Assembly: GCA_043756725.1 (NCBI GenBank)
Contig: JAYUQN010001025.1
Span: forward strand, 1-52,668
DNA from: Saprospiraceae bacterium
GTDB taxonomy: Bacteria; Bacteroidota; Bacteroidia; Chitinophagales; Saprospiraceae
DNA length: 52,668 nt
Reading direction: 5' to 3'
The position numbers were made by a program, and so were the translations under genes. The first letter of the stretch is position 1. Every line of letters starts with the position of its first letter. Of this stretch, positions 1 to 52,668 are shown in pieces. The notes under the pieces were generated by a model. It was not told the DNA's origin, ran no database searches, and saw only the letters and a program-made list of their open reading frames with translations.

Positions 1-753
1 ATTCGGGTTCTGAATTTCACCGCCTAAAAAACCGACGGTATTCCACCCTTCATACGCCCAAAAAGCAGCAAGCATTGCCCCAAATAAGGATTTTATGAAA
101 ACACCTTCTGTCCAGCCGTGTTCAACATAAGTTGTTGCAGGAGTCGCTATATTTGAAAAACTGCCACCGCCAAAAAACAAACCTGAAATAACGATGAGTG
201 CCAAGCCCGCAATCACAAATTTTGTAATCCACGTGCTTAAAAGTTCACCGCCTTTTACACCTCTTGTATTGATATTTGTTAAAATCAAAATGAGAACAAT
301 GGCTAATGCTTTCACCCCAAAATTGTCAAAAGGCTGAAAAACACCAATTTTGATGCTTTCAATAGAAGCGTCCAAATGCGGCAAAGGTAAGAGTGAATTA
401 AAAGATTGCGCAAAAACGTAAGCAATAGAAGATATTGATGCCGTTTTAATGACCGCAAATGTGCTCCAACCAAACAAAAATGCCGTAAATCTGCCATAAA
501 TGCGCTTGAAATAAACATATTCGCCGCCCGACCCTGCAAGCATACCCGCAATTTCAGCATTGCTTAAAGCACCACAAAGGCTAATGATACCCGCCAGAAT
601 CCACGCCATCAAAACAAGTTTGGGCGATTGTAAATCGGCAGACATAGGCGCTACTTTTTTATAAACACCCGTACCGATAACCGAACTCACAACTAAAATA
701 GTCGCCGAAGCGAGGGTGATGGTTTTTATTAATTGTCCTTGTTTCTTTTCCAT
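1..753 (-). CDS. APC-family amino acid permease, N-terminal part only (runs off the left edge)
   Basis: It is absent from the ORF track because it has no stop in the window. The reverse-strand ATG at 753..751 opens a frame that stays open to base 1 (251 codons). The product reads MEKKQGQLIKTITLASATILVVSSVIGTGVYKK...GALSNAEIAGMLAGSGGEYVYFKRIYGRFTAFLFGWS... and is a multi-TM hydrophobic protein typical of APC transporters. The tracked ORF 312..560 is a different frame inside it. Confidence 0.8.
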   Translation of the reverse strand, partial: MEKKQGQLIKTITLASATILVVSSVIGTGVYKKVAPMSADLQSPKLVLMAWILAGIISLCGALSNAEIAGMLAGSGGEYVYFKRIYGRFTAFLFGWSTFAVIKTASISSIAYVFAQSFNSLLPLPHLDASIESIKIGVFQPFDNFGVKALAIVLILILTNINTRGVKGGELLSTWITKFVIAGLALIVISGLFFGGGSFSNIATPATTYVEHGWTEGVFIKSLFGAMLAAFWAYEGWNTVGFLGGEIQNPN

Positions 754-981
754 AAAAAATATATTTGGTTAGTTTTTCAATTAAAGAGGGAAGGTCGTAA
801 TTTTTTTGAAAAAAAATGAACCCTCTTAAAATTATGATAGATAAAATGCTCCTTTTGTCTTATTTATCTTTTAAAAATGTTATATTCTTAACACATTTTT
901 ATGGTTTATATGAACTAATAACCATTTTTAGACGTTTTAATTAATGTTGCAAAGAAATTTTATATTTGAAAAAGCTATAAA

Positions 982-1224
982 ATGACAAAGTATTTAACCT
1001 TAAATGAGATAAAACAACACTTTCCTGATGAGTGGATTTTGTTAGGCGACCCTAAGACAGACGGCTTAGATGTTTTGGGCGGCTTAGTTTTGTATCATAG
1101 TAAAGATAAGAAAGAGGTCTGTTATCTTGGGAGGGATAAAATTAAACCCTTTGCTATGTCCACTTTAATTTATACAGGGGAATTAAAAACTATGCGAAAA
1201 TTAGGCATCTTAAAACGACTATGA
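982..1224 (+). CDS. Small hypothetical protein (80 aa), first gene of a 4-bp-overlapping pair
   Basis: The ORF has an ATG start, and its stop overlaps the next start (ATGA at 1221..1224). The segment FPDEWILLGDPKTDGLDVLGGLVLYHSKDKKEV resembles the small partner proteins found upstream of bacterial retropepsin-like genes. That assignment comes from memory of the pattern only. Confidence 0.5.
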   Translation: MTKYLTLNEIKQHFPDEWILLGDPKTDGLDVLGGLVLYHSKDKKEVCYLGRDKIKPFAMSTLIYTGELKTMRKLGILKRL

Positions 1225-1613
1225 CAAATTTCTCCTTCCAACTTACTGATGATGATAGCGTAATCGTTTTAATAGCTTTCATCGAAGACCGTTTTCGCCT
1301 TCGATTAGCTTTAGATACAGCCGCTTCTCATACCACAATAGATTCTAATGTGCTTTTCATGTTGGGTTTTGAACTCAAAGATGCCATCGGCGAAGTTGAA
1401 GTTGAAACTTCAAACGGTATTATACTCGTTGAAGAACATCGTTTAGCAAAACTCACTTGCTTAAATATTGAGCGAACACATTTTGTTGTCCAAGTCTATG
1501 ATTTTTTAGCACATGGAGTGACCTCTAATTAGGATGGTGTAATTGGTCTTGATTTTTTAAAAAGCCAAAAAATTTGTCTTGACTTTAAGAAATTTTTGAT
1601 TTCTGTTCATTGA
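1221..1613 (+). pseudogene. Retropepsin-like (clan AA) aspartic protease interrupted by one in-frame TAG
   Basis: LALDTAASHTTID matches the D-T/S-G-A active-site region. TAG at 1530..1532 is followed in the same frame by DGVIGLDFLKSQKICLDFKKFLISVH then TGA (1611..1613). That continuation is the conserved (Y)DG(I/V)LG(M/L)DFL C-terminal strand of this fold. Confidence 0.7.
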
Positions 1614-1630
1614 TGCTTAAAGGGGTTTCT

Positions 1631-2692
1631 CTATCTTACCAAACCCAACCCTCCCCTATTCGGCAAAGTCATAAACCCCTCTTTCAAGATAAAACCGCTT
1701 TTCACAATGTCCACAGCGAGGTCTAAACTGCCATCAAGGTCAATGTATTTTGTATTTTTACAACTGTATGCCGCATGAAGGGCGGCTGTAATACTCACAA
1801 TACTTTCATCATTACAGCCCCAAAAAAGGTCAATATTTGAAAATTTGGCAATATTGGCAATTTTCATGGCTTCGGAAATACCACCACATTTCATCAATTT
1901 TATGTTGAAAATACCGAAAGTTCTATCGGCAGCTAATTGAAAAGCGGCTTCGCCATCGTGCAGGCTTTCATCGGCAGCTAAACGATTGCGGATGGCTATA
2001 GGTAGGGTTTTTATACCCCCCTCAGTACCAACGAGACTGGGTTGCTCAACAAGTTCAATTTTCAGTTTTTCAATACGCTTGAAAAAAGGGATTATTTCCT
2101 CCACTTTATAGCCTTGATTGGCATCTACTCGTAGTTGAAGTTTATTGCCAAATTGCTCCCTTAATTTCACCAATCTTTCAATATCGAGTTCAAAATCAAC
2201 GCCTATTTTCACTTTTAAGGCTTTGAAACCTGCGTCAAAATATTCTTTGGCTTCGTCCAAAGTCTCTTGCACGCCTTTTATGCCGATAGTGACAGATGTG
2301 GGTAGTTTTTTAATTTCTTGGTTGTAAAATTTCACAATCGGAATGCCCAAATATTGACCGAAAGCATCGTGCAAGGCAATATCCATCGCTGCCAAAGTGC
2401 CCGGTTTGTGAGGAAAAGCCTGTTTCACTTCTTGTAAAATGGTAAACATTTCACCGATATTGCGCCCTACAAATTTCTGAATCGCCTCGGTTTGTAGGTT
2501 TTCAAAAGATTCATGGACATCTTCATCCACCACTTCTTTTGAGGGATTGGCAGCACCGATGCCAATTTTACCGTTTTTCAACTCGATTTCTACAAATACG
2601 CTTTCTACATCCGTAATGGTTTTGAAAGCGATGGTGTAGGGACGGGTGAGGGTGAGGTTTTTTTTATAGACTTTTATGGATTTGATTTTCAT
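1631..2692 (-). CDS. Dipeptide epimerase (L-Ala-D/L-Glu epimerase type), enolase superfamily
   Basis: The protein is 353 aa and carries the catalytic and metal motifs in order: ALKVKIG, RVDANQGY, VEQP, ADES, FNIKLMKCGG. Its start overlaps the stop of the upstream S9 peptidase gene by 1 nt. Confidence 0.9.
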   Translation of the reverse strand: MKIKSIKVYKKNLTLTRPYTIAFKTITDVESVFVEIELKNGKIGIGAANPSKEVVDEDVHESFENLQTEAIQKFVGRNIGEMFTILQEVKQAFPHKPGTLAAMDIALHDAFGQYLGIPIVKFYNQEIKKLPTSVTIGIKGVQETLDEAKEYFDAGFKALKVKIGVDFELDIERLVKLREQFGNKLQLRVDANQGYKVEEIIPFFKRIEKLKIELVEQPSLVGTEGGIKTLPIAIRNRLAADESLHDGEAAFQLAADRTFGIFNIKLMKCGGISEAMKIANIAKFSNIDLFWGCNDESIVSITAALHAAYSCKNTKYIDLDGSLDLAVDIVKSGFILKEGFMTLPNRGGLGLVR

Positions 2693-4821
2693 TATTTTTT
2701 ATTTTTCAACTTCCGCTCAAAAAAATCAGCAATCGCCAAATAGATTTTATACCAACTTTCATGTCTCAAAAAGCTATGCACTTCATCGGGTACAACCAGT
2801 AATTCTGTTTCAACATTTTTTTTACGCAAGAGGCGTAGGATGTTTTCTGTTTCTGAAAAAGGCACATTTTGGTCGTCATCACCGTGGGCAAATAGGACGG
2901 GTGATTTCCAACCATCAAGGTAAAAAATGGGCGAGGATTTATAGGCAATTTGGGCGTGTTTTGGAAAGCGCAAAGAATCATAATCGGGCATAAAAGTCGG
3001 AATTTCAGTATTCCAATTGTGGACTCCGTGAATATCACCACCCGCTGCAAACAAATCGGAACGCCTTGCTAGAGCATGAGCTGTCATGTACCCGCCGTAA
3101 CTACCGCCCCAAACCACAATTTTTGATGCCGATACTGAGGGGTGTGCTTTGAGCCACTCCCCTGCCGCTTCGAGGTCTTGAAATTCGCTGTTGCCTGATG
3201 CGCCATAGTTTTCAGCTTCTCTGAAATTTCTGCCGTAGCCTATCCCACTCCTATAATTTATAGCCAAAGCCACGTAGCCTTGGGAAGCAAAATATTGACT
3301 CAGGTGATAGGCATTTCCATAATATGCCCCTGGGTGATAGCCCAAAAGCATCTGCCTGCGTGACCCACCATGTACAAAAATAACGGCAGGGTGCGATTTG
3401 TCATTTTTCAAATTTTTAGGTAAAAAAACTTGGTTTTGAAATTTCAAACCATCTTTGGCAGTTAGCGTAATGGCTTGTGGTTCAACGAGTTGTGACTGTG
3501 GGAATGTTTTAGAAGGTTCTCCAATATGGGTAAAAATGCCTTTTGAAATATCGTACATTACCACGTGGGTAGGTGTACGTTCATCGCTTTGTAGTAAAAA
3601 AAGTGTATTGCTATTTGCCGCTTGTTGGATGTTTAGTTCTATCGTTTTACCTTTTGTCAAAACCTGTGCGTAGCCTTTTTCAACCGTTTCATTTCGCAAA
3701 GGCAAAGCGTTTTGGCTGGGCAAATCTGCCACCCAAATATGTTTTCTATCCATGTCACTTTGATTGCTGTTGAAAAGCACTTGTCTTTTATCACGGCTTA
3801 AAACCACTTCGTCCACTTCAAAATCGCCTTTTGTTAATTGTACAGGTTTTCCACCCGTAGAAGGAACAGCATACAATTGTTGCCAACCTGTTTTTTCCCA
3901 AGCAAAAACGAGGTGATTTGTGCTTGTCCAAAGCAATTGTTGTTTGCCTGTGTGATTCCAATAAACACTGCCCATACCTTTATCTGCAGTGAAAATGGTG
4001 CGGTATGGACTGGTGCTTTGTGTTAAATCGGCTACAATGATTGACCAGGGTTCTTGCTCACGGAGAGGGAAAAAACTCACTGTTGGTTCTAAATCTCGTC
4101 TTAACCTCAAAAATGCTATTTGTTTGCTATCGGGCGACCAAACAGGTTCTGTATCCGTGTCAATTGAGGGATTTATAAACGTATAATCCTTTTTTTCAAA
4201 ATCATAAACGCCAACAAAACTATGTTTGCCTCGATTACTTACAAAAGCCAGTTTTTGACCATCGGGCGACCAACGCACTTGCGTAGCCCCGTTGCGAACT
4301 TGGCATAATTGGGTAGCCGCGAGTGTGTCATACACATTTTTAATATAAATTTGACCACCTCGTGTAAACACTAATTTTTGACCATTGGGTGAAACACTTG
4401 GATTTGCGCCCGTCCCAATTTTCACCGTTTTTTTACTGCCCATATCCAATTGAAAAATGGTAGGGACTGTGCCTTCTAAAACATGGCTTGGGTTATGCGA
4501 CTGATTAGCTTGCACTTGTGGCGGGTTACCTTTGATGTAAAATAGCGCTCGTTCATCTTGTGCCCATTCCAAATTAGAAATTTCAATACCATCATCCTTA
4601 TCAAAATTGGTCAATTTTATGGGTAAATACTGAGGGGGGGTCGCCAAGTAAATATTGCGAATGCCTTTCACCATTTCCACCCAAACGATTTTATCGCCCG
4701 TAGGAGAAACAGTTAAATTAGAAGACATGGGGGCAGACATGAGGTTTTCGAGGGTCATGGTCTGCGCTGTTAAACTTTTCAGTGAAATGAAAAATAGAAA
4801 GATAAAACATAGGTTTTTCAT
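2692..4821 (-). CDS. Secreted S9-family serine peptidase (beta-propeller plus alpha/beta-hydrolase)
   Basis: The 709-aa protein starts with the signal peptide MKNLCFIFLFFISLKSLTAQ. The N-terminal half has TolB-like propeller repeats. The nucleophile elbow is WGGSYGGYM, followed by HGDDDQNVP and PDEVHSF (Asp and His). Confidence 0.9.
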   Translation of the reverse strand: MKNLCFIFLFFISLKSLTAQTMTLENLMSAPMSSNLTVSPTGDKIVWVEMVKGIRNIYLATPPQYLPIKLTNFDKDDGIEISNLEWAQDERALFYIKGNPPQVQANQSHNPSHVLEGTVPTIFQLDMGSKKTVKIGTGANPSVSPNGQKLVFTRGGQIYIKNVYDTLAATQLCQVRNGATQVRWSPDGQKLAFVSNRGKHSFVGVYDFEKKDYTFINPSIDTDTEPVWSPDSKQIAFLRLRRDLEPTVSFFPLREQEPWSIIVADLTQSTSPYRTIFTADKGMGSVYWNHTGKQQLLWTSTNHLVFAWEKTGWQQLYAVPSTGGKPVQLTKGDFEVDEVVLSRDKRQVLFNSNQSDMDRKHIWVADLPSQNALPLRNETVEKGYAQVLTKGKTIELNIQQAANSNTLFLLQSDERTPTHVVMYDISKGIFTHIGEPSKTFPQSQLVEPQAITLTAKDGLKFQNQVFLPKNLKNDKSHPAVIFVHGGSRRQMLLGYHPGAYYGNAYHLSQYFASQGYVALAINYRSGIGYGRNFREAENYGASGNSEFQDLEAAGEWLKAHPSVSASKIVVWGGSYGGYMTAHALARRSDLFAAGGDIHGVHNWNTEIPTFMPDYDSLRFPKHAQIAYKSSPIFYLDGWKSPVLFAHGDDDQNVPFSETENILRLLRKKNVETELLVVPDEVHSFLRHESWYKIYLAIADFFERKLKNKK

Positions 4822-4923: not shown

Positions 4924-6507
4924 TTAAACACGCACCCAAAAAATGCGTTTTCCATCTACTTCAATCCAGTCTTTTTTCCAAAATTTCTTTTTATTATGGT
5001 CAAAAATTAAGAGATACCCAGTATCTAAACCCAAGCGGTCTAAATAATCGGCAAGTTGTAAAAGCCCTTCATCATGAGCCGCTTGTCCGTACCAAACTTT
5101 CAGTTCTGCTACGTATTGATGTTGAAAATAGGTGATAACGACATCTAAACGGCGTTCTTCTGACACTTGGGGTTCTCTAAAATCATACCCGCCACCATTT
5201 ATGATAGGTTTGATAAAGGCTAAAAATATTAATCGTCCATCTCGCTCTAAAAATTTTCGGTCTTTATCACTGTATTGTTGCTTCATAAAAGATTGAAAAT
5301 TTTCTAAGACTTTTACCATATCTAAACCATTATTGGGCAGACGGTATTGGCTCATAAAATCAAAAAGCGAGGAGTTATTGCCTTTAATTAAATTGGTGGT
5401 ACGCCATTTTGAAATCATATAATTAGCAATCCGCTCTCGATAAATACGGTTATGGATTTTCAATGTCCCACTTTCAGAGGCAGCAAAAATACCATGAAGT
5501 TTACCCAAGTTAATAGTTGGGTCGTCTGACCGAAAATCTATTTTTACACCGTCTATAATCACCGCATAAACAAGTTCATATAAAGCGGGATAATCTTCGA
5601 GGTTTTTTATGAGTGTATCAAAATTCGTATTACTTTCTTTGCGTAACAACAATTGAAAAGCCGCATTGAGGTCTTCATCTGTCCATTCTTTCACGGTTTT
5701 AGTAGGTAAAATCTCTTCGGCAATAATTTTACACATGTCGCTAGTTAAATAAGGATAGCCCGAAGTTAGATAAAATAACCGTTCTGCCATATAGGTTGTA
5801 TCCATTTTTACGCCCTGTTCTTGAGCATAATCATCTAGCATGGGTTTAATTTCACTAGGCTGCAAATTCATATCAACTAAAAATTCGGTGGCAATATTCC
5901 ACGGCGAATTATATTTTCGTTCTTCATCGGGGCGTATTTTAAGTTTCAAAGATTTTACATCATGCACCCCTGCAAGCATAATGCAATGAAAAGTAGGATT
6001 TCTTTTGCGTTCCAAATATTTGTCACGCAGCATGGCTAAAAAGCTGACAAACAATTGATTATTACTACTTTTATCCACTTCGTCAATAAAAACAACGGTT
6101 TTTTTAGCGGTTTTTGAACACAACTCGGTAATCACGCTTCGGAGGTCTTCCAAGTTATTAGTTTTAGCTGCAGTTTCAACTAACCACGATTTCAATTCAG
6201 GCGCAGACTCATGGGCAACATTGCTTAATAATCGAACAAAACCTGATGAAAACTTAATTTCATCATTAAAAATAGCATCGCCAATGCCTTCAAAACTGAT
6301 ATGGAAAATAATGTATTCACCAGAATCTATCAACCTTTGTCTTAACGTGTGCATGGTCGTCGTTTTTCCGTATTGGCGTGGGCGGTTGATGATAAAATAT
6401 TTCCCTTTTTCTATCATAGAAAAAGTTTCATCTAACTGCTTTGACACATCAGCCATATAATGTTCATCAGGAAAACATAAACCTGTTACATTGAATTCTT
6501 TTGCCAT
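4924..6507 (-). CDS. AAA-ATPase-like protein with C-terminal PD-(D/E)XK nuclease-like domain
   Basis: Walker A is RPRQYGKTTT and Walker B is VVFIDEVD. The C-terminus has RRLDVVITYFQHQYVAELKVWYG, a D...E-x-K pattern. This architecture is common in Bacteroidota (predicted AAA-ATPase plus PDDEXK). Confidence 0.8.
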   Translation of the reverse strand: MAKEFNVTGLCFPDEHYMADVSKQLDETFSMIEKGKYFIINRPRQYGKTTTMHTLRQRLIDSGEYIIFHISFEGIGDAIFNDEIKFSSGFVRLLSNVAHESAPELKSWLVETAAKTNNLEDLRSVITELCSKTAKKTVVFIDEVDKSSNNQLFVSFLAMLRDKYLERKRNPTFHCIMLAGVHDVKSLKLKIRPDEERKYNSPWNIATEFLVDMNLQPSEIKPMLDDYAQEQGVKMDTTYMAERLFYLTSGYPYLTSDMCKIIAEEILPTKTVKEWTDEDLNAAFQLLLRKESNTNFDTLIKNLEDYPALYELVYAVIIDGVKIDFRSDDPTINLGKLHGIFAASESGTLKIHNRIYRERIANYMISKWRTTNLIKGNNSSLFDFMSQYRLPNNGLDMVKVLENFQSFMKQQYSDKDRKFLERDGRLIFLAFIKPIINGGGYDFREPQVSEERRLDVVITYFQHQYVAELKVWYGQAAHDEGLLQLADYLDRLGLDTGYLLIFDHNKKKFWKKDWIEVDGKRIFWVRV

Positions 6508-6558: not shown

Positions 6559-7632
6559 TCACTCTAATATATTTTTAATAGTCTCAACTATCTCCCCTAC
6601 CCCATCTTCCAAAGGCAGCACAACTGGAATGTTCAGTACCCCCCTCAGTATTTTTGCCTTTTCACGAGCTTTTTCGAGCGTCAATCCATGCGTATTGAGC
6701 GTAACAGCTATGACTTCCGAGCCGTACATTTTTATCAAAGCCACCTCACTTTCTACGCTGGGGATTTCAGCTTTTATATTGTCCTCCGTGCCTTCATAAT
6801 ATTGTCGGGCGGGGATGCCTTGTAAAACCACATATTTGGCTTGTCCTGAAAGCAACAACTCCGAACCTGTGGGTCCTATGGGGTTTCGCAAAGCGGATTG
6901 TCCGTTTAGAAAAATAACATCGGGTTTGGTTTCTTCAAAACATTTGACGATTTGGGTTTCTAATTCACCTGTTAAAAAATCGTTGAGGGTGGAGTCTAAT
7001 ATGAAAGCATAGCGTCCGTCTTGCATCCAGCCTGTTTGTCCTGTTGAAATCATTTCGGCTTTTAAGCCTTGTTTTCGACATTCTTGGGTTAAAAAGCGGG
7101 CGGTTGTGCGTTTTCCAACAGCGCAATCCATGCCTAATACGGCTATCCGAGGGGCAGTTACTTTTGAAATACGCCCCGACCAGTACGACATTTCAGTGGC
7201 TTTTTTGGCTTTTCGCACATCGGTCAAAGTAATGTCGTGTTTTTTAGCGAGTTTTACAAAATCGGGTTTATCGTTCAAAAACTCGTGTAAGCCATTGATG
7301 ACATTCAGTCCATTTTTCACCGCTTTTTTTAAAACGGACAACATATCGACTGGAATTTTACCACCTGAAACGGCTATACCTATTATAATGTGTTTCGGTT
7401 TTAGCGTTACGGATTTCGAGAGAGTTTTTAAGGCATTTTCAACCGTGTCAAAAATGGGAATATTGCGGTGCTTGCCATCGAGGATTTCACCTGCATCGTC
7501 ACCCGCACAAACGTAATCTATAATGCCTACTATTTTGAAACGCTCGGAATAACGAACCAGACCATGAGCCGTTTTACCGTTTTCAGTATTGTATAAACCG
7601 TGAGTAAGGATTAAAGCTGTATTTTCAGACAT
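6559..7632 (-). CDS. DUF1611-family protein (P-loop-like, often linked to D-Glu/dipeptide metabolism)
   Basis: The 357-aa protein has the family-typical segment RIAVLGMDCAVGKRTTARFL. Its genomic context with the dipeptide epimerase fits the family. Confidence 0.7.
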   Translation of the reverse strand: MSENTALILTHGLYNTENGKTAHGLVRYSERFKIVGIIDYVCAGDDAGEILDGKHRNIPIFDTVENALKTLSKSVTLKPKHIIIGIAVSGGKIPVDMLSVLKKAVKNGLNVINGLHEFLNDKPDFVKLAKKHDITLTDVRKAKKATEMSYWSGRISKVTAPRIAVLGMDCAVGKRTTARFLTQECRKQGLKAEMISTGQTGWMQDGRYAFILDSTLNDFLTGELETQIVKCFEETKPDVIFLNGQSALRNPIGPTGSELLLSGQAKYVVLQGIPARQYYEGTEDNIKAEIPSVESEVALIKMYGSEVIAVTLNTHGLTLEKAREKAKILRGVLNIPVVLPLEDGVGEIVETIKNILE

Positions 7633-7774: not shown

Positions 7775-8209
7775 ATGAAAAAATACATTTTCGCTTTATT
7801 GTTATTTTCTATACCCCCTCAGTATTTTCATGCCCAAACGCCGACTTTCGATTGGCAAGGGCATAGGGGCTCAAGGGGTTTGATGCCCGAAAATACCATT
7901 CCCGCTTTTTTGAAAGCCCTTGATTTGGGGATGAAAACATTAGAGCTTGACCTTACCGTGAGTGCCGATAATCAACTTATCATTTCGCATGAACCCTGGC
8001 TCAACCATGATATTTGCTTAAAAGCGGATGTGTTTAGCCCTGCTTATCTACTTGTTACTAAAAAAATGGTGAAACAATGCCATAATAAAGGAATAAAAAT
8101 CGTACCGTGGACGGTGAATGAAACTAAGGCTATGTTGAAATTGATGAAATTGGGCGTAGATGGGATTATTACGGATTATCCGAATCGGATACCTGTTTTG
8201 AATAGGTGA
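7775..8209 (+). CDS. Glycerophosphodiester phosphodiesterase (GDPD) homologue, abnormally short (144 aa)
   Basis: A signal peptide is followed by WQGHRGSRGLMPENTIPAF...LELDLTVSADNQLIISHEP, the N-terminal GDPD motifs. This is joined almost directly to the C-terminal motif KIVPWTVNETKAMLKLMKLGVDGIITDYPNR. The central third of the TIM barrel appears to be missing, in frame. Confidence 0.65.
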   Translation: MKKYIFALLLFSIPPQYFHAQTPTFDWQGHRGSRGLMPENTIPAFLKALDLGMKTLELDLTVSADNQLIISHEPWLNHDICLKADVFSPAYLLVTKKMVKQCHNKGIKIVPWTVNETKAMLKLMKLGVDGIITDYPNRIPVLNR

Positions 8210-10052: not shown

Positions 10053-10346
10053 GTGCATCAAATTATCATAAAATATAATAAATTATCAATGTGTTCAATG
10101 TGTAATCCTTGTATACGTTGTAATAATTGAATTTAACAGCAAACTTCATTCTTTTTAATTATATCTAAAAAAGAGATAATTACCAGCCAGATACTGAGGG
10201 GTGTAATTTCTATTAAAAAAAAACCTGAAAAAGTTAAAAAAGTTAAGCGTTTATCTTTTTTTCATTTAATTTTTATCTTTTACGAAACCTACTTTCTTTT
10301 ATAATTAGCTGATAATCAATTTTTTATATGCTGCTAATTTTTTATC

Positions 10347-10660: not shown

Positions 10661-10726
10661 AAAAAGAGTTTCCTATATTTGTCCTGTAATGCCTGTAATG
10701 ATAATTAATACCAAATCCACGATACT

Positions 10727-13478: not shown

Positions 13479-13627
13479 AAAACTAATTATCACGAAACAA
13501 AAAAAATATGTTTTGTACCCTTTAAATGGTATTTGGTAAGCATTTTGTATTATGAGAAAGATTGAAGAACAATAGTGCTTACTTTTTAAGCATTTTACAA
13601 ATAAATCAGCAAAAACGATACGCTTCT

Positions 13628-40800: not shown

Positions 40801-43800
40801 ACAACCATCGTTTTAACCGCACCAACTTGTAATGAAGCCCCTACAATTACGTCTGCCACAACTGCTAATTTTGCTGAAAATGGCACAGGAACAGCTTATA
40901 CAGTCATTGCAAATGACGCTGATGCTGGTCAAACCAAGACCTATTCGTTTGAAACAGGTGGCGCAGATAATGCTTTATTTTCAATAAATCCAACAACGGG
41001 TGCAGTGACTTTTAATACAAGTCCCGATTTTGAAAATCCAACAGATGCGAGTAACGATAATGTGTATAATATTAAAATAAAAGTTTGTGATGATGGCACG
41101 CCTCAATTATGCGTCATTCAAGATGTGGCAATAACGGTAACGAATGTTGCCGATACAGAAATTTGCAACAATCAAATAGATGATGATGGCGATGGTAAAA
41201 TAGACGGTGAAGACCCCGATTGTACTGAACCCGCTTGTAGCAATACCACAGGTACAATTACAGGAACTATTGCAGGACAAAATACAAATGCAAGTTTCAC
41301 CCAAAAATATGTCTTAACCGATAGTACAGGGAAGATTTTACAGATTTTAAACACCCCCTCAGTATCAGGCTTGTCTGCGGGTAAATACCGTTTTTATGCT
41401 GTGAATTATGAAACAGCAAGTGGCATTACAGGTTTAACGGCTAATCAAAACATAAGCGGCGTAACTGGAACGTGCGTAAATATTTCGCTACCCTTATTGT
41501 ATAAAATATGTGTAGGTACTGAAATCTGCAACAATCAACTCGATGATGATGGCGACGGTAAAATAGACGGCGAAGACCCCGATTGTGCCGAACCCGCTTG
41601 TGATAATACAACTGGAACAATTACCGCTACTATTGCAGGTCAAAATACAGGTGCAGGTTTCACCCAAAAATATGTTTTAACCGATAGTACAGGTAAGATT
41701 TTACAGATTTTAACCACCCCCTCAGTATCGGGCTTGTCTGCGGGTAAATACCGTTTTTATGCTGTGAATTATGAAACAGCAAGTGGCATTACAGGTTTAA
41801 CGGCTAATCAAAATATAACGGCTGTAACGGGTACGTGTGTCAATATTTCATTGCCTTTATTGTATAAAATATGTATGCTGCCTTGTTCTGTTATCAATAT
41901 TCCCAATATTTCAAAAACAAACCCGAGTGTAACAAGTTGCCCTGTTTTAAATGATGGCACTGTCACAATAACAGCAACGGGTTCAAATTTAAGATATTCA
42001 AGAGACAGTGGGGCTACTTGGCAAACTTCCAATATTTTCAATAATTTGATAGCTGGAACGGTTTTAATTCGCGTGCAAGACAGTGTAGGCTTGTGTTATA
42101 AAGATACAAGTATTGTTTTAAATGCGCCCCTTTGTTGTGCAACACCCACAGTAGGTGGAACAACAAGTTTGGTTGGCGGTCAAACGTTATGCGATGTTTA
42201 TAATGCAGACAGGATAGCTGTGAGTGGCAAAACGGGCAATGTTCTTAAATGGCAAACTTCAACCAATGGCGGTACTTCATGGACAGATATTCCTTTTACG
42301 GGCGATACATTGAGTTTTAACAATGCCATTAACAATCAAAAATACAGAGTCCTTATCAGCAATGGTACATATTGCAGCAATGATACTTCAACAGTAACGA
42401 CCATTCAAACAGAACCTTATGCGTGTTGTAATAGTACAGATGGTTCAATATCAGCGACTTATGGAGGTTTTAGTACAGACCCAAGTCATACAAATAAATT
42501 TGCATTGACCGATACCACAGGGCGTATTTTACAAATTACGAACACCCTTTCCGTAGGAACACCTAAGGTGCAGTATTCTAATTTAAATACGGGCTGGTAC
42601 TATATCTACGCCATTACTTATGATTCTTTGGGCTATGTGCGCGGTTTAAATGTTGGGTCAGATATTGATACTTTAAATGGAGAATGTTTATTGAAAACAG
42701 CACCCATACCTTATAAAGTCTGTCGGGGTGCAAAATTGGAACATAGCGTAGAGGTCAGTGCTTCAACTGTTTGTCTAAATGGCATCAGTGATTATACTTT
42801 AATAGTTAGAAATACAAGTACCAATCCTGCTCGAAATGTGGTTATTTCAGATACTTTGGCAACAGGTTTAGTGTTTTTAGTAGATACTGTTCAACTCACA
42901 GGTGGAGCAACTTATTCTGCCAATACCGTTCCTGCGACCAATGCTACAGGTGTTTTACAATGGGGGAGTTTTGATATTCCTGCGGGCGATTCGGTCATAA
43001 TTACCGCTATTTTCAAAGTAGCAAACACAGCTATGGCAGGTATTTTTCACAACAGCTTAGGCTCTATTTCAACCCAAGATACAATTGTGCCTTTTATAGG
43101 CAATTTAGCCGCAAATACCTCCGATGATTTGACCGTAAGCACCACAGGCGATTGTGCAAATGGTGGGCAATCCATAGCGTGTAGCCCCTCATTTTATCAA
43201 ATTTTTACACAAAATCGCTCTACCAAATTCGCTCAATTAAATGTGCCAACGCTGAGTTACACCGTCGTCGGTTCAGGTCCAAGAGGCATGAATGCCATAG
43301 GAGTGAATGAAAAAACAGGCTTTGCTTACGGGGTTTTGAACGTGTCTGGTATGACCCGTTTTATAAAAATAGGAGCCAATAATACCGTTTTTGATATGGG
43401 CGTTAATCTCGGCAGCCCTTTTATCATAGCAGGTGATTGCGATACAAGCGGCTATTGGTGGGCAAAACACGGCAACCAGTTTTTGAAAGTAAAACTTTCA
43501 GACAATAGCCAAATCCATTATACCCCCACAGGCTCTGCTGTTTGGGGCGCGGATATGGTTTTTAGAAGAGTTGATAAAAAGTTTTACAGTGCAAATGGTA
43601 CAACTTTAAGTATTTATGACCCGCTTTCAAATAACGTTTCAACCCTAACTTTGACAGGCGACGTCACCACAAATGGCTCTGGCACTTATGGCGGTCAATG
43701 GGCAGGGGCGGATGGTGAAATCTATATTTCAAGCAACGTGTCAGGTAAAATTTATAAAGTAGATGTGGCAACAGGGGCAACAAGTTTGATTATCACAACA

Positions 43801-45403: not shown

Positions 45404-45450
45404 ACCCCTCAGTATCACGAATCGCGCGATATTGAGGGGTTCTTTTTTTT
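45404..45450 (+). terminator. Rho-independent terminator of the 2509-aa gene, with a stem made from the CCCCTCAGTAT motif
   Basis: ACCCCTCAGTATC (45404..45416) pairs with GATATTGAGGGGT (45428..45440). That gives 12 pairs including one G-U, and the stem is followed by a T8 run (45443..45450). Confidence 0.8.
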
Positions 45451-45747: not shown

Positions 45748-45837
45748 TTTTTTACAAAAATAAACTTTTTAATTGACGTTGCCAACTTTTAATTGAAAAC
45801 TACCCCCCTCAGTATTTTCACCATTTTTAAGAGATAA

Positions 45838-46632
45838 TCATAAAGTGCTTAACAAACCACCATCAACTGGAATATTTACCCCATTCACATAAGCGGCTAA
45901 GTCAGAAGCTAAAAAAGTGGCAACATTAGCCATATCTTCGGGCTGACCAATATGCCCCACAGGAATTGTCGCAGCCATTTGTTTCACAACAGTATCTCTA
46001 TCCAAGTTTGCATTTTTCATCCGAATATCAATCAAAGATTCCAATCTTTCAGTGAAAATCAAGCCTGTTAATAGATTATTGACCGTAATACCATCTTTAC
46101 CCAATTCCATTGCCAATGATTTTGCCCAATTGACCATACCTGCCCGAATGGTGTTCGATATGCCCAAATCAATGCGGGGTTGTTTTGCCGTAGAGGAAGC
46201 AATGGTGATGATGCGCCCCCAATGTTGCACTTGCATAGCGGGTACAAAGGCTTGTACCAACATTTGACTTGCCATAATTGCGGCATTAAAATAGTCCAAA
46301 TACTGAGGGGGGGTTGCATTGTAAGCGGAATTTGGTACAGGTCCACCCGAGTTTAAAACGAGGATGGAAACGGGCATTTCAGCCGTATCTTTTACATATT
46401 GCGCTAAGGTGCGTTCCAGTTTTTTCAAATCTGTAAAATCTATGACTTTGAAATCGTGCTTTTGCCCTTTCGCTTTTGGCAGATTTTTCACAGCCGCTTT
46501 CAGTTTTTCACCATTACGCCCCGTTAAAGTGACGTTTGCGCCACATTCTGCCATTTTATGAGCAATAGCATAGCCAATACCTTGTGAACTGCCACCTATG
46601 AAGGCTCTTCGATTTTTTAATGAAATATTCAT
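45838..46632 (-). CDS. SDR-family oxidoreductase
   Basis: The 264-aa protein has the N-terminal cofactor motif IGGSSQGIGYAIA, plus NSGG and the catalytic region ASSTAK. The usual Y-x3-K is not obvious, so the subclass is unknown. Confidence 0.85.
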   Translation of the reverse strand: MNISLKNRRAFIGGSSQGIGYAIAHKMAECGANVTLTGRNGEKLKAAVKNLPKAKGQKHDFKVIDFTDLKKLERTLAQYVKDTAEMPVSILVLNSGGPVPNSAYNATPPQYLDYFNAAIMASQMLVQAFVPAMQVQHWGRIITIASSTAKQPRIDLGISNTIRAGMVNWAKSLAMELGKDGITVNNLLTGLIFTERLESLIDIRMKNANLDRDTVVKQMAATIPVGHIGQPEDMANVATFLASDLAAYVNGVNIPVDGGLLSTL

Positions 46633-47973: not shown

Positions 47974-48348
47974 TCAAAGATAATCGCTCACTGCAAAACA
48001 AGTTACATTATCAGGCAGGTTTTCAAAATCTTTAAAAGAATTGGTGGTGTAAATCGCATCAATATGCGCCAAATCAAAGCCTTTGCTGAAAATACCGTGA
48101 CTGACTATCAACACTATTTTACCCGCATTATGGCGTTTCAACAAAGCCGACAAACCGACAAACGTACCCCCACCATCGTAAATATCATCTACAATAAAGC
48201 AGATTTTGCCTTCAAAATCACTTTCCATTGTCTTAAAATCCGATAAATTGCCCGTTTTTACATCCCGCATTTTCATACATTCAGCTACTCGTGGTTTCAA
48301 CAAAGGTGGTCTGAAATTGAACCTATTTTTAATGTAATAGGATGCGAT
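47974..48348 (-). pseudogene. 3-prime remnant of a type I phosphoribosyltransferase (Prs/PRTase-like)
   Basis: The PRPP-binding loop is KICFIVDDIYDGGGTF. Only about 110-125 codons are open: the frame runs to a stop at 48349..48351 with no ATG, and the tracked start is TTG at 48303. The N-terminal half of the fold is absent. Confidence 0.55.
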
Positions 48349-48455
48349 TTAAAGAATGAAACCAATCGTTTTGAAATTTATAATCCAAGAAAAATCTATG
48401 ATTATTTTGTAATTAATCAAAAAAGTTGATATATTTGACTATAAAAGTGAAAAAA

Positions 48456-48806
48456 ATGAACAATCCTGATTATATAGATGAAGCTATTAGCCAACTACGA
48501 ATAGAAAGACCTAAAAATCTGAAGATTAATATCGTAGTAGAAACAGATGAGGCTCGTGTAGCATCAATGAGGCAACAGTCGTATTTGAAAAAAAAGTATC
48601 GTCTTGCGCTTAAATTTTCTGCAATGATGGACATTCAAAAATATGCAGAAACACATCCAGAATGGGGTGCAAAGGATGTTTTGGTAGAAATTATGAAAAA
48701 CTATTATTCAGACTTTCCGCCTGTGATAGTGCTTGAAATGGCGGAGTATATTGTGACTGAATGGGAGAAAATACAATCTTCTAAAAAAGAATTGGCTTTG
48801 ACTTAA
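48456..48806 (+). CDS. Hypothetical 116-aa protein
   Basis: ATG at 48456 is preferred over the tracked TTG at 48426. No recognisable motif was found. Confidence 0.5.
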   Translation: MNNPDYIDEAISQLRIERPKNLKINIVVETDEARVASMRQQSYLKKKYRLALKFSAMMDIQKYAETHPEWGAKDVLVEIMKNYYSDFPPVIVLEMAEYIVTEWEKIQSSKKELALT

Positions 48807-49026
48807 AAATATACCCCTCAGTATTTTTGTAAAAAATCAACAGATAGAATATATATTTTCTTATTTTCTACGCATCGTTTTGAGCTAAGAGATTTGTTAA
48901 AAGAGTTTTATTGGGTTGAACGTGAAGATGTATTGCAAGTTTTGGCGTTTTCAGCAAATATTCTTAATGACCGTATTATTTTAATTGAAAAGCCGCTTGT
49001 GTATTGGTACACAAACGGCTTGTCTT
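48807..49026 (+). pseudogene. Possible start-less remnant of a DUF433-type antitoxin-like gene
   Basis: The frame is open with no ATG/GTG start. It reads ...LRDLLKEFYWVEREDVLQVLAFSANIL..., resembling the DUF433 C-terminal pattern IL.DYP.L..EDI.AAL.YAA. The assignment is from memory. Confidence 0.3.
48991..49020. terminator. Hairpin between convergent transcription units
   Basis: The arms are AGCCGCTTGTGTA and TACACAAACGGCT with one mismatch, around the loop TTGG. Confidence 0.45.
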
Positions 49027-49045: not shown

Positions 49046-49612
49046 TTATTTAATGATTTTTGCATCAACAGTACCGTCTTTAAAATGATATACCAAGTCT
49101 TTTCTTCCGCTTCTCGGCAAAGACTTAAAGGTTAAATCAAACTTTACAGCTACTCGAGTAGAATCAAGAAAAGTTAATTCCACATAATTTGATATTTTAG
49201 TAGTATCCAATACAAAATTCACTGAAGGTCCATCATGCTCTTTTAAACCATAATGTATAAGGCATTCATTGTCTAATCTTTCAAGCGAGGTTTTGAGTGT
49301 AAACTTAGAGTACTTATTCAATCTATTAGGAATTGTAAATGTAAAAATCTCAGTTATATAGTTGGTAGAGTCATCAAAAAATGTACCAGCAGTAACATCA
49401 ACTGCCTTAATATCAGCACGTAAATGTGCGCCCGATGAGGCAGTCCAAATCTTATTATTTAGTGTAGCACTTGCTTGACCGAATTTCATATTTCCGGGTC
49501 TAAAAATTCTCACATTATCAATCATTTCTGCTATTTCAGTTTCAACAACTGGCTTTTTGCAAGAAGCCACAAATAAGGATATAGAGATTAAAATAATGGT
49601 AAAGAATTTCAT
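49046..49612 (-). CDS. Lipoprotein of unknown function, translationally coupled to the metalloprotease gene
   Basis: The signal peptide plus lipobox-like sequence is MKFFTIILISISLFVASC. Its start overlaps the upstream stop (ATGA on the minus strand at 49612..49609). Confidence 0.7.
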   Translation of the reverse strand: MKFFTIILISISLFVASCKKPVVETEIAEMIDNVRIFRPGNMKFGQASATLNNKIWTASSGAHLRADIKAVDVTAGTFFDDSTNYITEIFTFTIPNRLNKYSKFTLKTSLERLDNECLIHYGLKEHDGPSVNFVLDTTKISNYVELTFLDSTRVAVKFDLTFKSLPRSGRKDLVYHFKDGTVDAKIIK

Positions 49613-51423
49613 AATTTTATAAGTTTTACAATGTTAAACTGTTGTTTATTTTGCAATTTCAGCATATAAAATCCAGTTGGAATATTTGATAAATCAATCT
49701 TAAAAGCATGAAATCCTTTGGTGAAAATTTCATTTTTAATATTTTTGACATTTCTGCCTTGAAAATCAACTATATCAATGGATGTATTTGAAAGCTCATC
49801 ATTGATGTCAAATTCAAGGTTATAATAGCCATTGCTTGGATTAGGGTATACGTTTACCGACGTATTTTGATTAGTTGAGCCTTGTGTTAGGTAATAATTA
49901 TTATCACAACTTGCATTGAATGGAGTAGAAACAACTTTTACAACACCATCATTTGATGTTACCCGTAGGTGGATCCAAAAATTCGATATCCCTGAATTAT
50001 AAAAGTAAATTGTCGAGCCAGTTCCTATTCTATTAGCAGGATTATCATCAAACATCGAGTTTAATGTCAAAAACCATTCATAAGTATACGGTGACTGGCC
50101 TGGCATACCAGGTGCTGCGGGGGACACACTTGCATTTAACTGAAGTACATTACAAGTTACCCCTGAATAAGAAATATAGGCATCCAATTCCGGTGAAGTC
50201 CTAAAATTTTGAACAATACAACCCGTATTGCGTATAGTTTTAGTATTATTGGCTTCTTGACCCGTAACATTACTACCAGTCACTGCATTATTATATGAAA
50301 TATCTGGATTTGAGAAATGAAGGATTGTTCTATCTATCTCGCTTTGATGACCAACAGCCATCATTGTTTTTCTTATGACGCCTGTACCATCTGTAAACCT
50401 AAATCCATGTCCACAACTTGGTTCATCATCATCGCCAATACCATCATTGGATCTATTATGCCTCGCACCTAATAAATGACCAATTTCATGTGGAAATGAC
50501 CAAAATCCCCCTAAAGAATGTTGAACTTCAACAATTGCATAAGATTTGGCATCCTCTAATTCTAAGGTTCCATATTGTCCAAAATAAGGAGACCCAAATA
50601 AATTATAGTTGTTATTTGTAATTGCCACAACCAAATCAGCTTTATATAAGTTTCTTAAATTCTGTGCTTGTGTATTATTTATTAGATCGTTTATAGCAAC
50701 CTCAATATTATGATTACTTGAAAATGGTGTGTTGAAATTCACAGCTCTTACTCTAATTTGTTTATTAGATATTCCGCTGTTTTGTAAAGCTAAATTCGTA
50801 AAAGCTTGTAAAAGTGGTATGTAAAGGACTTGTGACCAAAAATCCATATTTTCCGTTATCCAATTAGTTGCTTCGGGTGTAATTAATAAGAGAACATCAA
50901 TTGTGGCTGGGCAAAAAGTACCGTCAGATAATGTACATGGATTTTCAATAGTTTGCATTCTTTGTTGTAAGGCAAATCCATTAGTTTGAGGTGAAGGTTC
51001 TATTGGACATACGGCCTTTTCATATTTAGAAATGTCATGCTCTACCAAAAGACAGAAATTATTTTTTAGAGGCTGTAACAAAAAGAATTTATCATCATAT
51101 TGAATAGCTCCCATTATTCCTTCTGGTTTTACAGCAAGCAGCATATAGCCTGATTTGCCTATTAGCTCTCCTGACCAAATATAATCATCTTTGCCGAAAT
51201 ACTCGAATCTTTTTGATTTTACTGTAATATTTTCTCCAGCAAGTGATACGGTGAGTGCGTCTTTAACAAGTGATTCCTTTAGTTTTTTGACTTTAACAAC
51301 AGTAACGTTTTTTGTGTGTTTATTGCCTTTTACTGTTGTGATAATTTTTTTCTGATTTGCATTTAATTGAGCTTCCTCGGGTGAAGATTCAGAAAAAAAT
51401 TTGTTAGGATTTTGTGCAATCAA
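49609..51423 (-). CDS. Metzincin zinc metalloprotease with a T9SS type-A C-terminal sorting domain; the 5-prime end is out of frame with its ATG and signal peptide
   Basis: The zinc motif is HEIGHLLGARH (HExxHxxGxxH). The C-terminal VYPNPSNGYYNLEF...GFYMLKLQNKQQFNIVKLIKL is a T9SS CTD. The tracked start is TTG in the middle of a hydrophobic segment. The ATG at 51505 is in another frame, separated by a 7-bp repeat (see the finding at 51423..51505). Confidence 0.85.
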   Translation of the reverse strand: MIAQNPNKFFSESSPEEAQLNANQKKIITTVKGNKHTKNVTVVKVKKLKESLVKDALTVSLAGENITVKSKRFEYFGKDDYIWSGELIGKSGYMLLAVKPEGIMGAIQYDDKFFLLQPLKNNFCLLVEHDISKYEKAVCPIEPSPQTNGFALQQRMQTIENPCTLSDGTFCPATIDVLLLITPEATNWITENMDFWSQVLYIPLLQAFTNLALQNSGISNKQIRVRAVNFNTPFSSNHNIEVAINDLINNTQAQNLRNLYKADLVVAITNNNYNLFGSPYFGQYGTLELEDAKSYAIVEVQHSLGGFWSFPHEIGHLLGARHNRSNDGIGDDDEPSCGHGFRFTDGTGVIRKTMMAVGHQSEIDRTILHFSNPDISYNNAVTGSNVTGQEANNTKTIRNTGCIVQNFRTSPELDAYISYSGVTCNVLQLNASVSPAAPGMPGQSPYTYEWFLTLNSMFDDNPANRIGTGSTIYFYNSGISNFWIHLRVTSNDGVVKVVSTPFNASCDNNYYLTQGSTNQNTSVNVYPNPSNGYYNLEFDINDELSNTSIDIVDFQGRNVKNIKNEIFTKGFHAFKIDLSNIPTGFYMLKLQNKQQFNIVKLIKL

Positions 51424-51458
51424 GACAGTTTGAATTAATAAACATAAGACAATTAGTA

Positions 51459-51489
51459 CGTGATGCGTGATGCGTGATGCGTGATGCGT
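51459..51489 (-). repeat. Heptanucleotide tandem repeat (CGTGATG on plus strand, CGCATCA on the coding strand), 4 copies plus a partial copy
   Basis: The sequence acgtgatgcgtgatgcgtgatgcgtgatgcgta was read directly. It lies inside the 5-prime region of the metalloprotease gene. Confidence 0.95.
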
Positions 51490-51834
51490 AATAAAGTTGT
51501 TTCATTTTAAATTTTGATTTGATTAAAAAATAAATTTTAATAGGCAAATATAAGATTAATCATCGTATAAGTCAAATATTTTATACTTATTTTTATACTT
51601 GATTACAAAGCTTGTCCCCTCAGTATTAACATGAATTATACTAATTAAACCAAATTATTTATGATTTATTAGTAGTTAAATTAGTGTTGCAAGTCATTTG
51701 GCTCGTGTTAAAAAAGTGAAATACTGAAGGGTAGCCATTCATCAATCCAAAATAAGACAGTATAGGACAGTTATTTCAAAAAGAGGTTTTACCTTTGAGG
51801 GTGAAAAAAATCAATCAATTAAAAATATAAACGT

Positions 51835-52668
51835 ATGTCTATAAACAAAAACTACAAGCACGTAAGCTACCTCTGGGACGAGTCCAAAGCCGCATCAATG
51901 GCAGGCGATGAAGTCGCATTATTCATCTATCGCTCCAACTTATTAGGGGCAGATTTGCGCTTAACAAACTACGGCGGCGGCAATACCTCTGTCAAAATAA
52001 CCGACAAAGACCCTTTGACAGGCGAATCCATAGAAGTGATGTGGATAAAAGGCTCGGGTGGTGACATCGGCACTTTGAAAAAATCGGGTTGCGCTGCCTT
52101 GTACATGGAGCGTTTGTTGAACCTTGAAAACGTCTATCGGGGCATCGAACACGAGGACGAAATGGTCGAGCTTTTCAACCATTGCATCTTCGATTTGGCA
52201 TCTAAAGCACCGTCTATTGATACGCCTTTGCACGGCTTTTTACCTTTCACTCACATTGACCACTTGCACCCAGACGCAGCCATCGCCATTGCTGCCGCTA
52301 AAGACGGTGCTAAAATCACACACGACCTATTCAATGGTGAAATCGGTTGGGTAGAATGGCAACGCCCTGGCTTCGATTTGGGCTTAAAACTCCGCACTTG
52401 TTTGAACGATGCGGCTGCAAAAGGCATCAAATTGAAAGGTATTATGTTGGGTTCGCACGGACTTTTCACTTGGGGCGATTCAGCTTACGAAAGTTATATA
52501 AATACATTAGAGGTGATTGAAAAATGTGGACAATACCTTGAGGATAATTATGGTAAAAAACGCCCTGTTTTCGGAGGTCAAAAAACGGAAAGTCTTTCAC
52601 CCGATGAAAGGCTTAAAAAAGCCGCTAAAATTGCTCCGATACTGAGGGGGTATTGTTCTTCCTCTGAT
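51835..52668 (+). CDS. Bifunctional rhamnulose-1-phosphate aldolase / short-chain dehydrogenase, N-terminal part (runs off the right edge)
   Basis: It is absent from the ORF track because it has no stop in the window. ATG at 51835 opens 278 codons to the window end. The product reads MSINKNYKHVSYLWDESKAASMAGDEVALFIYRSNLLGADLRLTNYGGGNTSVKI...VMWIKGSGGDIGTLK..., matching the conserved N-terminus of this family as recalled. Confidence 0.8.
   Translation, partial: MSINKNYKHVSYLWDESKAASMAGDEVALFIYRSNLLGADLRLTNYGGGNTSVKITDKDPLTGESIEVMWIKGSGGDIGTLKKSGCAALYMERLLNLENVYRGIEHEDEMVELFNHCIFDLASKAPSIDTPLHGFLPFTHIDHLHPDAAIAIAAAKDGAKITHDLFNGEIGWVEWQRPGFDLGLKLRTCLNDAAAKGIKLKGIMLGSHGLFTWGDSAYESYINTLEVIEKCGQYLEDNYGKKRPVFGGQKTESLSPDERLKKAAKIAPILRGYCSSSD

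Follow-up and report, generated by a model that had tools for sequence, protein, structure and literature searches.

Comparative work treats sequence-specific DNA uptake as confined to Neisseriaceae and Pasteurellaceae, and a terminator share of ~50% has been reported both for the DNA uptake sequence (DUS) of the former and for the uptake signal sequence (USS) of the latter (bioRxiv 10.1101/2025.10.24.684340). In the canonical USS of Haemophilus influenzae, two helically phased T-tracts flank a 9-bp core on one side; USSs are tolerated in genes, and pairs of them have been co-opted as terminators (PMC3458573). In Bacteroidota, transformation uses a TonB-dependent outer-membrane system, not a type IV pilus with a secretin (PMC12478041, PMC8459023). 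Here we describe a 10-nucleotide word, CCCCTCAGTA, that recurs throughout a 52,668-nt stretch of DNA from a Saprospiraceae bacterium (JAYUQN010001025.1; a complete NCBI contig, hereafter the window) and that an earlier note on this DNA had likened to uptake signals. We find that the word is a clade-wide genome signature and not a local repeat, and we consider it probable that it is an uptake-signal analogue that evolved independently in a Saprospiraceae-like clade of Bacteroidota and was spread by biased import and recombination.

The word resembles the Pasteurellaceae USS (AAGTGCGGT core) in its short asymmetric core, its density of ~1 per kb on both strands, its one-sided helically phased A/T tracts, its tolerance in several reading frames and its use in terminator pairs, as well as in orthologous conservation among related species, even spacing and an excess of perfect over one-mismatch copies. 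It differs in that the sequence is unrelated, the host belongs to another phylum, a C-run of variable length lies 5′ of the core, the phased flank spans 4–5 helical turns and not 2, and the import machinery is probably a different one; any uptake bias of the present word, moreover, is putative. With the Neisseriaceae DUS (AT-GCCGTCTGAA and its dialects, with the minor pilin ComP as receptor) it has in common a clade-specific 10–12-bp word at ~1 per kb, inverted pairs in terminators and enrichment after gene ends, whereas the DUS lacks phased A/T flanks and has a pilin receptor of a kind that would not be expected here. Descent from either family does not agree with the core, which is CCCCTCAGTA and not AAGTGCGGT, ACAAGCGGT or one of the GCCGTCTGAA dialects; by sequence, host and probable machinery, the word would be an independent invention.

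Abundance of the word in the window

The window contains 28 exact copies of CCCCTCAGTA (21 plus, 7 minus), and every coordinate and strand listed in the earlier note proved exact on recount. Dinucleotide-preserving shuffles of the window yielded a mean of 0.04 copies and a maximum of 1. The word is the commonest 9-, 10- and 11-mer in the window, and all of the CCCCTCAG or CCTCAGTA 8-mers sit within full copies of it. One-mismatch copies number 3 (36793+, 45430− and 51722−), against 1.4 expected. As two genic pairs of copies (19639/20554 and 41355/41718) fall in paralogous or tandem repeats, the copies represent ~26 independent occurrences. On the window gene map we reproduced the reported division into 16 sense genic, 5 antisense genic and 7 intergenic or edge copies, together with the peptide readings PLS, PSV and PQY for sense copies and LRG and TEG for antisense copies. 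Rfam and tRNA scans of the window gave no matches.

Distribution of the word across genomes

The S9 peptidase encoded in the window has a graded series of relatives, and we fetched the contigs that carry them. Eight further contigs, picked by S9 peptidase, ComEC or leucyl-tRNA synthetase (LeuRS) homology and not by the motif, contain the identical 10-mer at 0.6–1.1 per kb. Three of them, with S9 peptidases 82%, 69% and 66% identical to that of the window, hold 17 copies in 22 kb (L002), 11 copies in 13.5 kb (L004, GCA_043754475.1) and 14 copies in 22 kb (L003), respectively. Another three, at 62%, 61% and 58% identity, place the gene in an unrelated neighbourhood and hold 13 copies in 22 kb (L312), 16 copies in 17 kb (L313) and 18 copies in 21 kb (L314). 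The contig reached via ComEC (L318, GCA_031367705.1) has 16 copies in 16 kb, and the one reached via LeuRS (L321, GCA_016787525.1, a metagenome-assembled genome (MAG) named Saprospiraceae bacterium at NCBI) has 26 copies in 22.8 kb. The nine contigs from nine genomes, window included, have a joint total of 159 copies over 209.5 kb, a density of 0.76 per kb (~1 per 1.3 kb), where 0.27 copies per 132 kb would be expected under a third-order Markov model.

Beyond this clade the word is absent from the loci that we examined. In 24 kb of non-redundant DNA, sister lineages with S9 peptidases at 57% (L315 and L316, GCA_043748865.1) and 56% (L317) identity have 0 copies, and none of the other non-A/T k-mers in these 24 kb is conspicuous. 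An outgroup set of 80 loci (1.14 Mb, including Chitinophagaceae, Cyclobacteriaceae and MAGs labelled Saprospiraceae), taken from an alignment scan with the S9 peptidase and ≤46% identical to it among the matches listed, likewise has 0 copies among those matches. A metagenome scan added at least 120 stretches, ~23 of them from the clade. The nearest named homologues of the ComEC and LeuRS of the clade belong to Saprospiraceae MAGs. The genome-wide, DNA-level motif proposed in the earlier note is supported, and the data agree with the same note's suggestion of a long residence of the window in a single host.

Extended form of the word

In the window, the core is preceded by an A and a C-run of 4–7 in 26/28 copies and directly followed by T in 22/28. 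These parts of the extended consensus offered earlier stand; over the range that the earlier note had examined the flanks of the 28 copies are otherwise unrelated. Across 189 non-redundant copies, C or A occupies position −1 in 186 (G in one), and T occupies position +10 in 67%. Comparison of the flanks of these copies shows no sequence conservation beyond ~12 bp.

The flank carries a different kind of regularity, one that is new in this analysis. A/T content rises and falls every 10.5–11 bp on the 3′ side of the core, with peaks at +10–12, +20–22, +29–32, +41–43 and +50–52 and troughs at +14–16, +25–27, +35–38 and +46–47. The spectral power is 0.12–0.24 on the 3′ side, compared with 0.035–0.045 on the 5′ side and ≤0.013 at random positions. 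The phasing is found separately in sense-genic, antisense-genic and intergenic copies, and separately in each of five subsets (the window, the first relatives, metagenome contigs, phage-like contigs and five later loci). The extended form is (A/C)(C/A)CCCCTCAGTA-T plus A/T-rich patches at ~10.5-bp intervals across 4–5 helical turns of 3′ flank. The phased 3′ A/T points to a constrained element of ~60 bp that is one-sided and that would imply directional bending of the DNA. A Bacteroidota −7 promoter box (TAnnTTTG) was also considered, and the flank gives no consistent fit to it.

Conservation at orthologous sites

In codon alignments of syntenic genes, four or five genomes have the word at identical positions, namely at PPQY and PSVS in the S9 peptidase, at GTEG (antisense) in the epimerase and at ILRG (antisense) in DUF1611, while the synonymous positions beside these shared sites vary. 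Pairwise nucleotide alignments of the window and its relatives revealed 1 core difference between L182 and L004 (12.8 expected from background divergence), 2 between L003 and L004 (19.2 expected) and 1 between the window and L182 (13.4 expected). Because orthologous cores are kept while neighbouring synonymous sites vary, and because core divergence is as much as 10-fold below that of the background, the constraint acts on the DNA and not on the peptide. At the same sites, outgroup proteins carry comparable residues (PPAY, GPDY, RPEVD) with neither the word nor an indel; tolerant codons thus acquire copies by substitution.

Other genome pairs show lineage-specific gain or loss of sites. In 132 kb of pooled sequence we counted 88 perfect copies and 25 one-mismatch copies, a mild enrichment of the latter over the ~4 expected; most of these are C>T or G>A transitions, a spectrum that looks as decaying sites would. 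Divergence across L182–L191 is ≤0.1%, too low to give power to a population-level test based on single-nucleotide polymorphisms.

Strand orientation and position relative to genes

The 21:7 excess of plus-strand copies in the window had been put forward as a possible polar signal of the Chi or KOPS type, and this reading is not supported by the other genomes. Strand ratios within loci are 10:7, 7:7, 6:5, 5:8 and 9:7, metagenome contigs have a ratio of 43:42, and L321 shows no orientation switch around dnaA. In antisense frame 0 the word reads TAC TGA, a stop, so a 3:2 excess of sense over antisense copies is expected in genes; the pooled genic ratio of 77:43 fits this expectation (p = 0.40). 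The bias in the window is accounted for by gene orientation together with the antisense TGA frame, and the strand balance within loci disfavours Chi or KOPS at the scale of the available loci.

Gene context in the pooled loci was taken from a simple longest-ORF caller (open reading frames, ORFs, of ≥90 aa), not from a trained gene finder. On this map non-coding DNA accounts for 13.5% of the sequence and for 24.5% of the copies (p = 1.4e-4). Intergenic density is highest between convergent genes (2.3 per kb), followed by tandem (1.5) and divergent (0.9) gene pairs, and 20/30 intergenic copies beside a gene 3′ end are within 100 nt of the stop codon. For the window, the statement that intergenic copies mostly sit just past gene 3′ ends is borne out by 4/7 copies (21755, 45405, 45805 and 48814, all within ~60 nt) and not by the other 3. 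A partial inverted partner lies downstream of 15/59 intergenic copies and upstream of 2. Three perfect inverted pairs were found, all intergenic and all in the order motif then complement, one of them directly after the LeuRS stop in L321. The terminator stem reported earlier between convergent genes of the window (45404–45440) is real: a perfect copy (45405–45414, +) pairs with a one-mismatch inverted copy (45430–45439, −), and the hairpin folds at −27.4 kcal/mol (z = −6.0), with an A-run before it and a T-run after it. Most single intergenic copies in the window form no significant hairpin when folded alone, and the terminator share of the word is below the ~50% of DUS and USS (bioRxiv 10.1101/2025.10.24.684340). 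Copies are spaced more evenly than at random, with a coefficient of variation of the gaps of 0.78 versus 1.00 (p = 0.0015).

Competence genes

Transformation in Riemerella, the sole Bacteroidota system to have been dissected, needs ComEC, ComF, DprA and RecA. Using as a homology query the ComEC encoded beside the S9 gene of the motif-less sister lineage, we located a cluster of comF, comEC, a comEA-like gene and mltA on the motif-dense contig L318. Its comF product is a TIGR00201 protein with a zinc ribbon and a phosphoribosyltransferase (PRTase) domain, and comEC (PF03772 plus DUF4131) itself holds four motif copies. The ComEA-like protein (L318 12160–13341, present also in L319 and L320) has 393 aa, with a membrane anchor at its N terminus and four HHH_3 repeats. 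A gene for a TonB-dependent receptor follows the comF-comEC-comEA-mltA cluster in L319 and L320. A PRTase fragment at 47974–48303 in the window was considered and is not a ComF.

Copies and neighbouring genes in the window

The window was placed in Bacteroidota because it encodes proteins with the C-terminal domain of the type IX secretion system (T9SS-CTD). It opens with a minus-strand set of genes that encode an epimerase, an S9 peptidase, an AAA ATPase and DUF1611; a ParA/Rep3/primase-like module comes next, together with four giant ORFs and several genes for T9SS-CTD proteins. In the following, C4 to C7 gives the length of the C-run of each copy. A C6 copy at 2018–2027 (+) is antisense in the MR_MLE epimerase gene (1631–2692, −; GTEG), and the orthologous site carries the word in L002, L003, L004 and L182. 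The S9 peptidase gene (2692–4821, −) contains two sense copies kept in 5/5 orthologues: C4 at 3133–3142 (−; PSVS), where outgroups have PEVD or PNVD and no motif, and C7 at 4628–4637 (−; PPQY), where flanking synonymous sites vary. The DUF1611 gene (6559–7632, −) has an antisense C6 copy at 6641–6650 (+; ILRG) that recurs in L004 and L182 and is not found at this position in L003. Between these two genes, the AAA-ATPase gene (4924–6507) is an insertion relative to L003, L004 and L182, in which S9 adjoins DUF1611, and it holds no motif copy. A C5 copy at 7815–7824 (+) is sense in a short GDPD ORF (7775–8209, +; PPQY), which encodes 144 aa here versus 296 aa in L182 and is probably truncated.

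A C4 copy at 10192–10201 (−) lies in the intergenic ParA-Rep3 spacer, ~140 nt from an iteron array (10342–10640) and distinct from the iterons. The primase-like Zn-ribbon gene (12160–13068, +) has an antisense C7 copy at 12737–12746 (−; ILRG), and the giant ORF at 13562–18457 (+) an antisense C4 copy at 18343–18352 (−; GTEG). The next giant ORF (18565–21705) contains three sense C4 copies read as PLS, at 19639–19648, 20092–20101 and 20554–20563 (all +), the first and third in paralogous repeats. Between convergent genes, a C5 copy at 21755–21764 (+) follows the stop at 21705 by 50 nt, and 12 nt separate it from the minus-strand gene at 21776 (3′ end). The giant ORF at 23059–31620 has sense copies at 25477–25486 (+, C4; PLS), 26761–26770 (+, C6; PLS) and 30537–30546 (+, C5; PSV), the ORF at 33012–35186 one at 34547–34556 (+, C5; PSV), and the T9SS-CTD protein gene at 35337–36176 two, at 35759–35768 (+, C4; PSV) and 36048–36057 (+, C4; PLS). 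The first one-mismatch copy, CCCTTCAGTA at 36793–36802 (+), is a C>T transition, and an intergenic C7 copy at 37613–37622 (+), 197 nt upstream of the giant ORF at 37819–45348, is followed by a small A/T hairpin.

That giant ORF carries sense C5 copies at 41355–41364 (+; PSV), 41718–41727 (+) and 44352–44361 (+; PSV). The first two are duplicates of each other, in the first and second units of a 363-bp tandem duplication (41154–41874; 2.0 copies, 89% identical). Past the hairpin described above, an intergenic C6 copy at 45805–45814 (+) lies 24 nt beyond the 3′ end of the SDR gene (45838–46632, −), and a C7 copy at 46301–46310 (−; PPQY) is sense within that gene. Further intergenic C4 copies lie at 48814–48823 (+), 8 nt past the stop of the ORF at 48426–48806, and at 51616–51625 (+), 193 nt upstream of the M12B/T9SS protease gene (49609–51423, −). 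A second CCCTTCAGTA copy is found at 51722–51731 (−), and a C5 copy at 52640–52649 (−) lies at the contig edge. Upstream of the protease gene there is also a perfect 7-bp tandem repeat, CGTGATG x 4.4 (51459–51489).

Plasmid-type module, phage-like contigs and other repeats

The ParA/Rep3 module of the window (9000–11995) has ~9 iterons of TCGGTACAYTTATGGGG at 10342–10640. A ParA/Rep3 pair stands beside the same DUF1611-S9-epimerase genes in relatives at 66–69% S9 identity (L003 3534–6536, L182 2814–5831), and each relative's locus has its own iteron sequence (TACTCAAAAAGTCATA in L003). The locus resembles a plasmid-type replicon, possibly a chromid or megaplasmid, that has kept a stable synteny with housekeeping-type genes. 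A search of Rep3 against PLSDB returned only distant Firmicutes and Proteobacteria matches, and in another motif-bearing MAG dnaA lies on a separate contig (L321 3898–5343).

Phage-like contigs from IMG/VR comprise L050 (IMGVR_UViG_3300048691_000223), which encodes a terminase, a virion protein and a ParB-methyltransferase, L014 and L037 (both IMGVR_UViG_3300037882_004998), of which L037 encodes a terminase, and L081, L101, L057, L048 and L035. Some of them are strongly one-stranded (11:1 for L014 plus L037). Two other repeat arrangements were seen. L210 (JGI Ga0114942_1084465) has at 380–670 five tandem ~60-bp units, each with TACTGAGGGG, an A-rich tract and CTCGAAAAGTGAGCAAAAGTGCGG, which the flank of the window copy at 10192 loosely resembles. 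In L002 (5764–6376), clusters of a GATGTACGATGTGAGATGTACGA repeat lie either side of a 23S_rRNA_IVP-family gene.

Discussion

The earlier note's comparison of the word with uptake signals gains support from its clade-wide occurrence, orthologous conservation, strand balance, 3′-end enrichment, hairpins, phased A/T and the comF-comEC-comEA cluster. To our knowledge, this combination of enrichment, both orientations, clade restriction, orthologous conservation with turnover, frame tolerance, terminators, even spacing and a phased flank has been reported only for DUS and USS. With somewhat less confidence than in the uptake-signal analogue as such, we lean towards its being the first uptake signal outside Proteobacteria and towards non-pilus machinery as its reader, for example a TonB-dependent outer-membrane DNA transporter with a surface DNA-binding partner and/or the four-repeat ComEA, with the long flank reporting DNA bending. 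From what is known of Bacteroidota transformation, the four-repeat ComEA of the clade is a candidate receptor; a match between its four helix-hairpin-helix (HhH) repeats and the four to five A/T patches is no more than a suggestion.

Under this model, a component of the DNA-import machinery of the clade would bind double-stranded DNA best when it contains the core, and, as has been proposed for the Haemophilus USS, the phased A/T tracts may ease bending of the adjoining DNA in one direction. Conspecific fragments with the word would then be imported more often, through ComEA, ComEC and ComF, and would recombine into the chromosome. Such biased import and recombination (molecular drive) would fix new copies where they are tolerated, that is, in codons able to spell PLS, PSV, PQY, LRG or TEG and in intergenic DNA, and inverted pairs past gene ends could be co-opted as terminator hairpins.

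Several points weigh against an uptake signal. We infer the competence of the clade, its sequence-biased import and the identity of the word-reading protein for bacteria known from uncultured MAGs. Homologues of ComEC, ComF and ComEA are widespread in Bacteroidota, including in species not known to be competent, and the motif-less sister (GCA_043748865.1) encodes ComEC directly beside its S9 peptidase gene (L315 4230–6308 / L316 451–2529); ComEC is thus not what separates motif-bearing from motif-less lineages, and the com genes are necessary but weak evidence. The ~0.3 Mb of clade DNA examined showed no DprA, no outer-membrane transporter of DNA and no candidate receptor. Neisserial DUS are depleted in mobile elements, as expected of uptake sequences, whereas the phage-like contigs here (among them L050, L014 and L037) carry the word with its phased flank at a host-like ~0.8 per kb. 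Long-resident temperate phages could explain this density, which agrees as well with rival readings that have a DNA-binding or repair factor of the host select or create the word. DUS have dialects, and none of this word was seen in any locus examined despite deep divergence; the boundary between presence (58% S9 identity) and absence (56–57%) is abrupt. Where a site is lineage-specific, several bases at once set it apart from the orthologous sequence without the motif, so that intermediates are rare. Riemerella genomes have only A-rich top k-mers and no such word (PMC7965970).

The word might instead be the site of an abundant chromosome-associated DNA-bending protein (nucleoid-structuring, condensin-loading, or acting in replication or segregation) and be kept by chromosome function. 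An asymmetric core with phased A/T over ~50 bp would suit wrapping or bending on a protein surface, the even spacing agrees with such a role, phage-like contigs would share the nucleoid factor of their host, and an abrupt clade boundary is what the gain of one protein would produce. We nonetheless regard this explanation as unlikely. No nucleoid or segregation protein known to us uses thousands of perfect 10–12-bp sites that are mostly genic and in either orientation, and no candidate protein was found. The 3′-end enrichment and the inverted-pair hairpins are, moreover, the pattern of DUS and USS (PMC3458573). Cyanobacterial HIP1 (GCGATCGC) offers another precedent, as a hyper-abundant short word that is conserved at orthologous sites, clade-restricted and of debated function. 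A similar origin from sequence-specific repair or methylation-linked conversion bias (e.g., very-short-patch-type), with no role in import, would account for the excess of perfect over one-mismatch copies (28:3 in the window, 88:25 pooled), for sites conserved across genera and for the word in phage-like DNA replicating in the same hosts. HIP1 is palindromic and methyltransferase-linked, however, whereas the present word is asymmetric and terminator-associated, and a repair bias acting on the core would not create one-sided phased A/T tracts 20–50 bp away. Since it also leaves the 3′-end enrichment and the orientation of inverted pairs unexplained, and no cognate methyltransferase or repair gene was found, we think a HIP1-like origin quite improbable.

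It is very unlikely that the word is a recognition or packaging signal of a transducing phage or of a particle resembling a gene-transfer agent (GTA). Biased packaging followed by recombination would spread it by the same molecular-drive logic, and the word is dense in phage-like contigs; however, pac sites are normally single per phage genome and do not accumulate at ~1 per kb, no GTA genes were seen, and the comF-comEC-comEA cluster is present. Polar recombination or translocase signals such as Chi (GCTGGTGG) and KOPS (GGGNAGGG) are likewise over-represented oligomers that act at the DNA level, and the 21:7 ratio of the window taken alone would suit them. They are 5–8 nt long, few-fold enriched and strand-polar, whereas the word has 10–12 nt, is enriched several hundred-fold at 0.76 per kb and is non-polar; with the loci of the eight other genomes internally strand-balanced, the bias of the window explained by gene orientation and the antisense TGA frame, and no switch around dnaA, we give this explanation slight credence. 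Hardly any is left for the copies being remnants or targets of a small mobile repeat (a miniature inverted-repeat transposable element (MITE), a repetitive extragenic palindrome (REP) or an insertion) or Rep-binding iterons, for which the word-bearing tandem units of L210 and the copy in the ParA-Rep3 spacer could be cited. Conservation ends outside ~12 bp, genic copies result from in-frame codon substitutions and involve no insertion when compared with outgroup proteins, the iterons in the window and in L003 are other sequences, and the motif is dispersed genome-wide. A REP, MITE or Correia-type repeat was rejected, as there is no conserved element of 30–150 bp but only the ~12 bp.

An uptake-signal analogue thus remains our preferred explanation of the word. 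In agreement with the earlier note, which knew of no counterpart in Bacteroidota, our full-text literature search turned up no account of the word and none of an uptake signal in any Bacteroidota, Saprospiraceae included. In metagenomes, the word is a sharp marker of the clade and its phages, for taxonomy as well as for binning. If the uptake reading is true, uptake specificity and its genomic footprint evolve repeatedly, also in a phylum with non-pilus outer-membrane import, and the clade would provide an independent test of the molecular-drive model. The sharp boundary that separates the sister lineages would in that case be a direct pointer to the receptor gene and offer a comparative handle on a new kind of DNA receptor, and the word would suggest that abundant environmental Saprospiraceae-like bacteria exchange genes by transformation.

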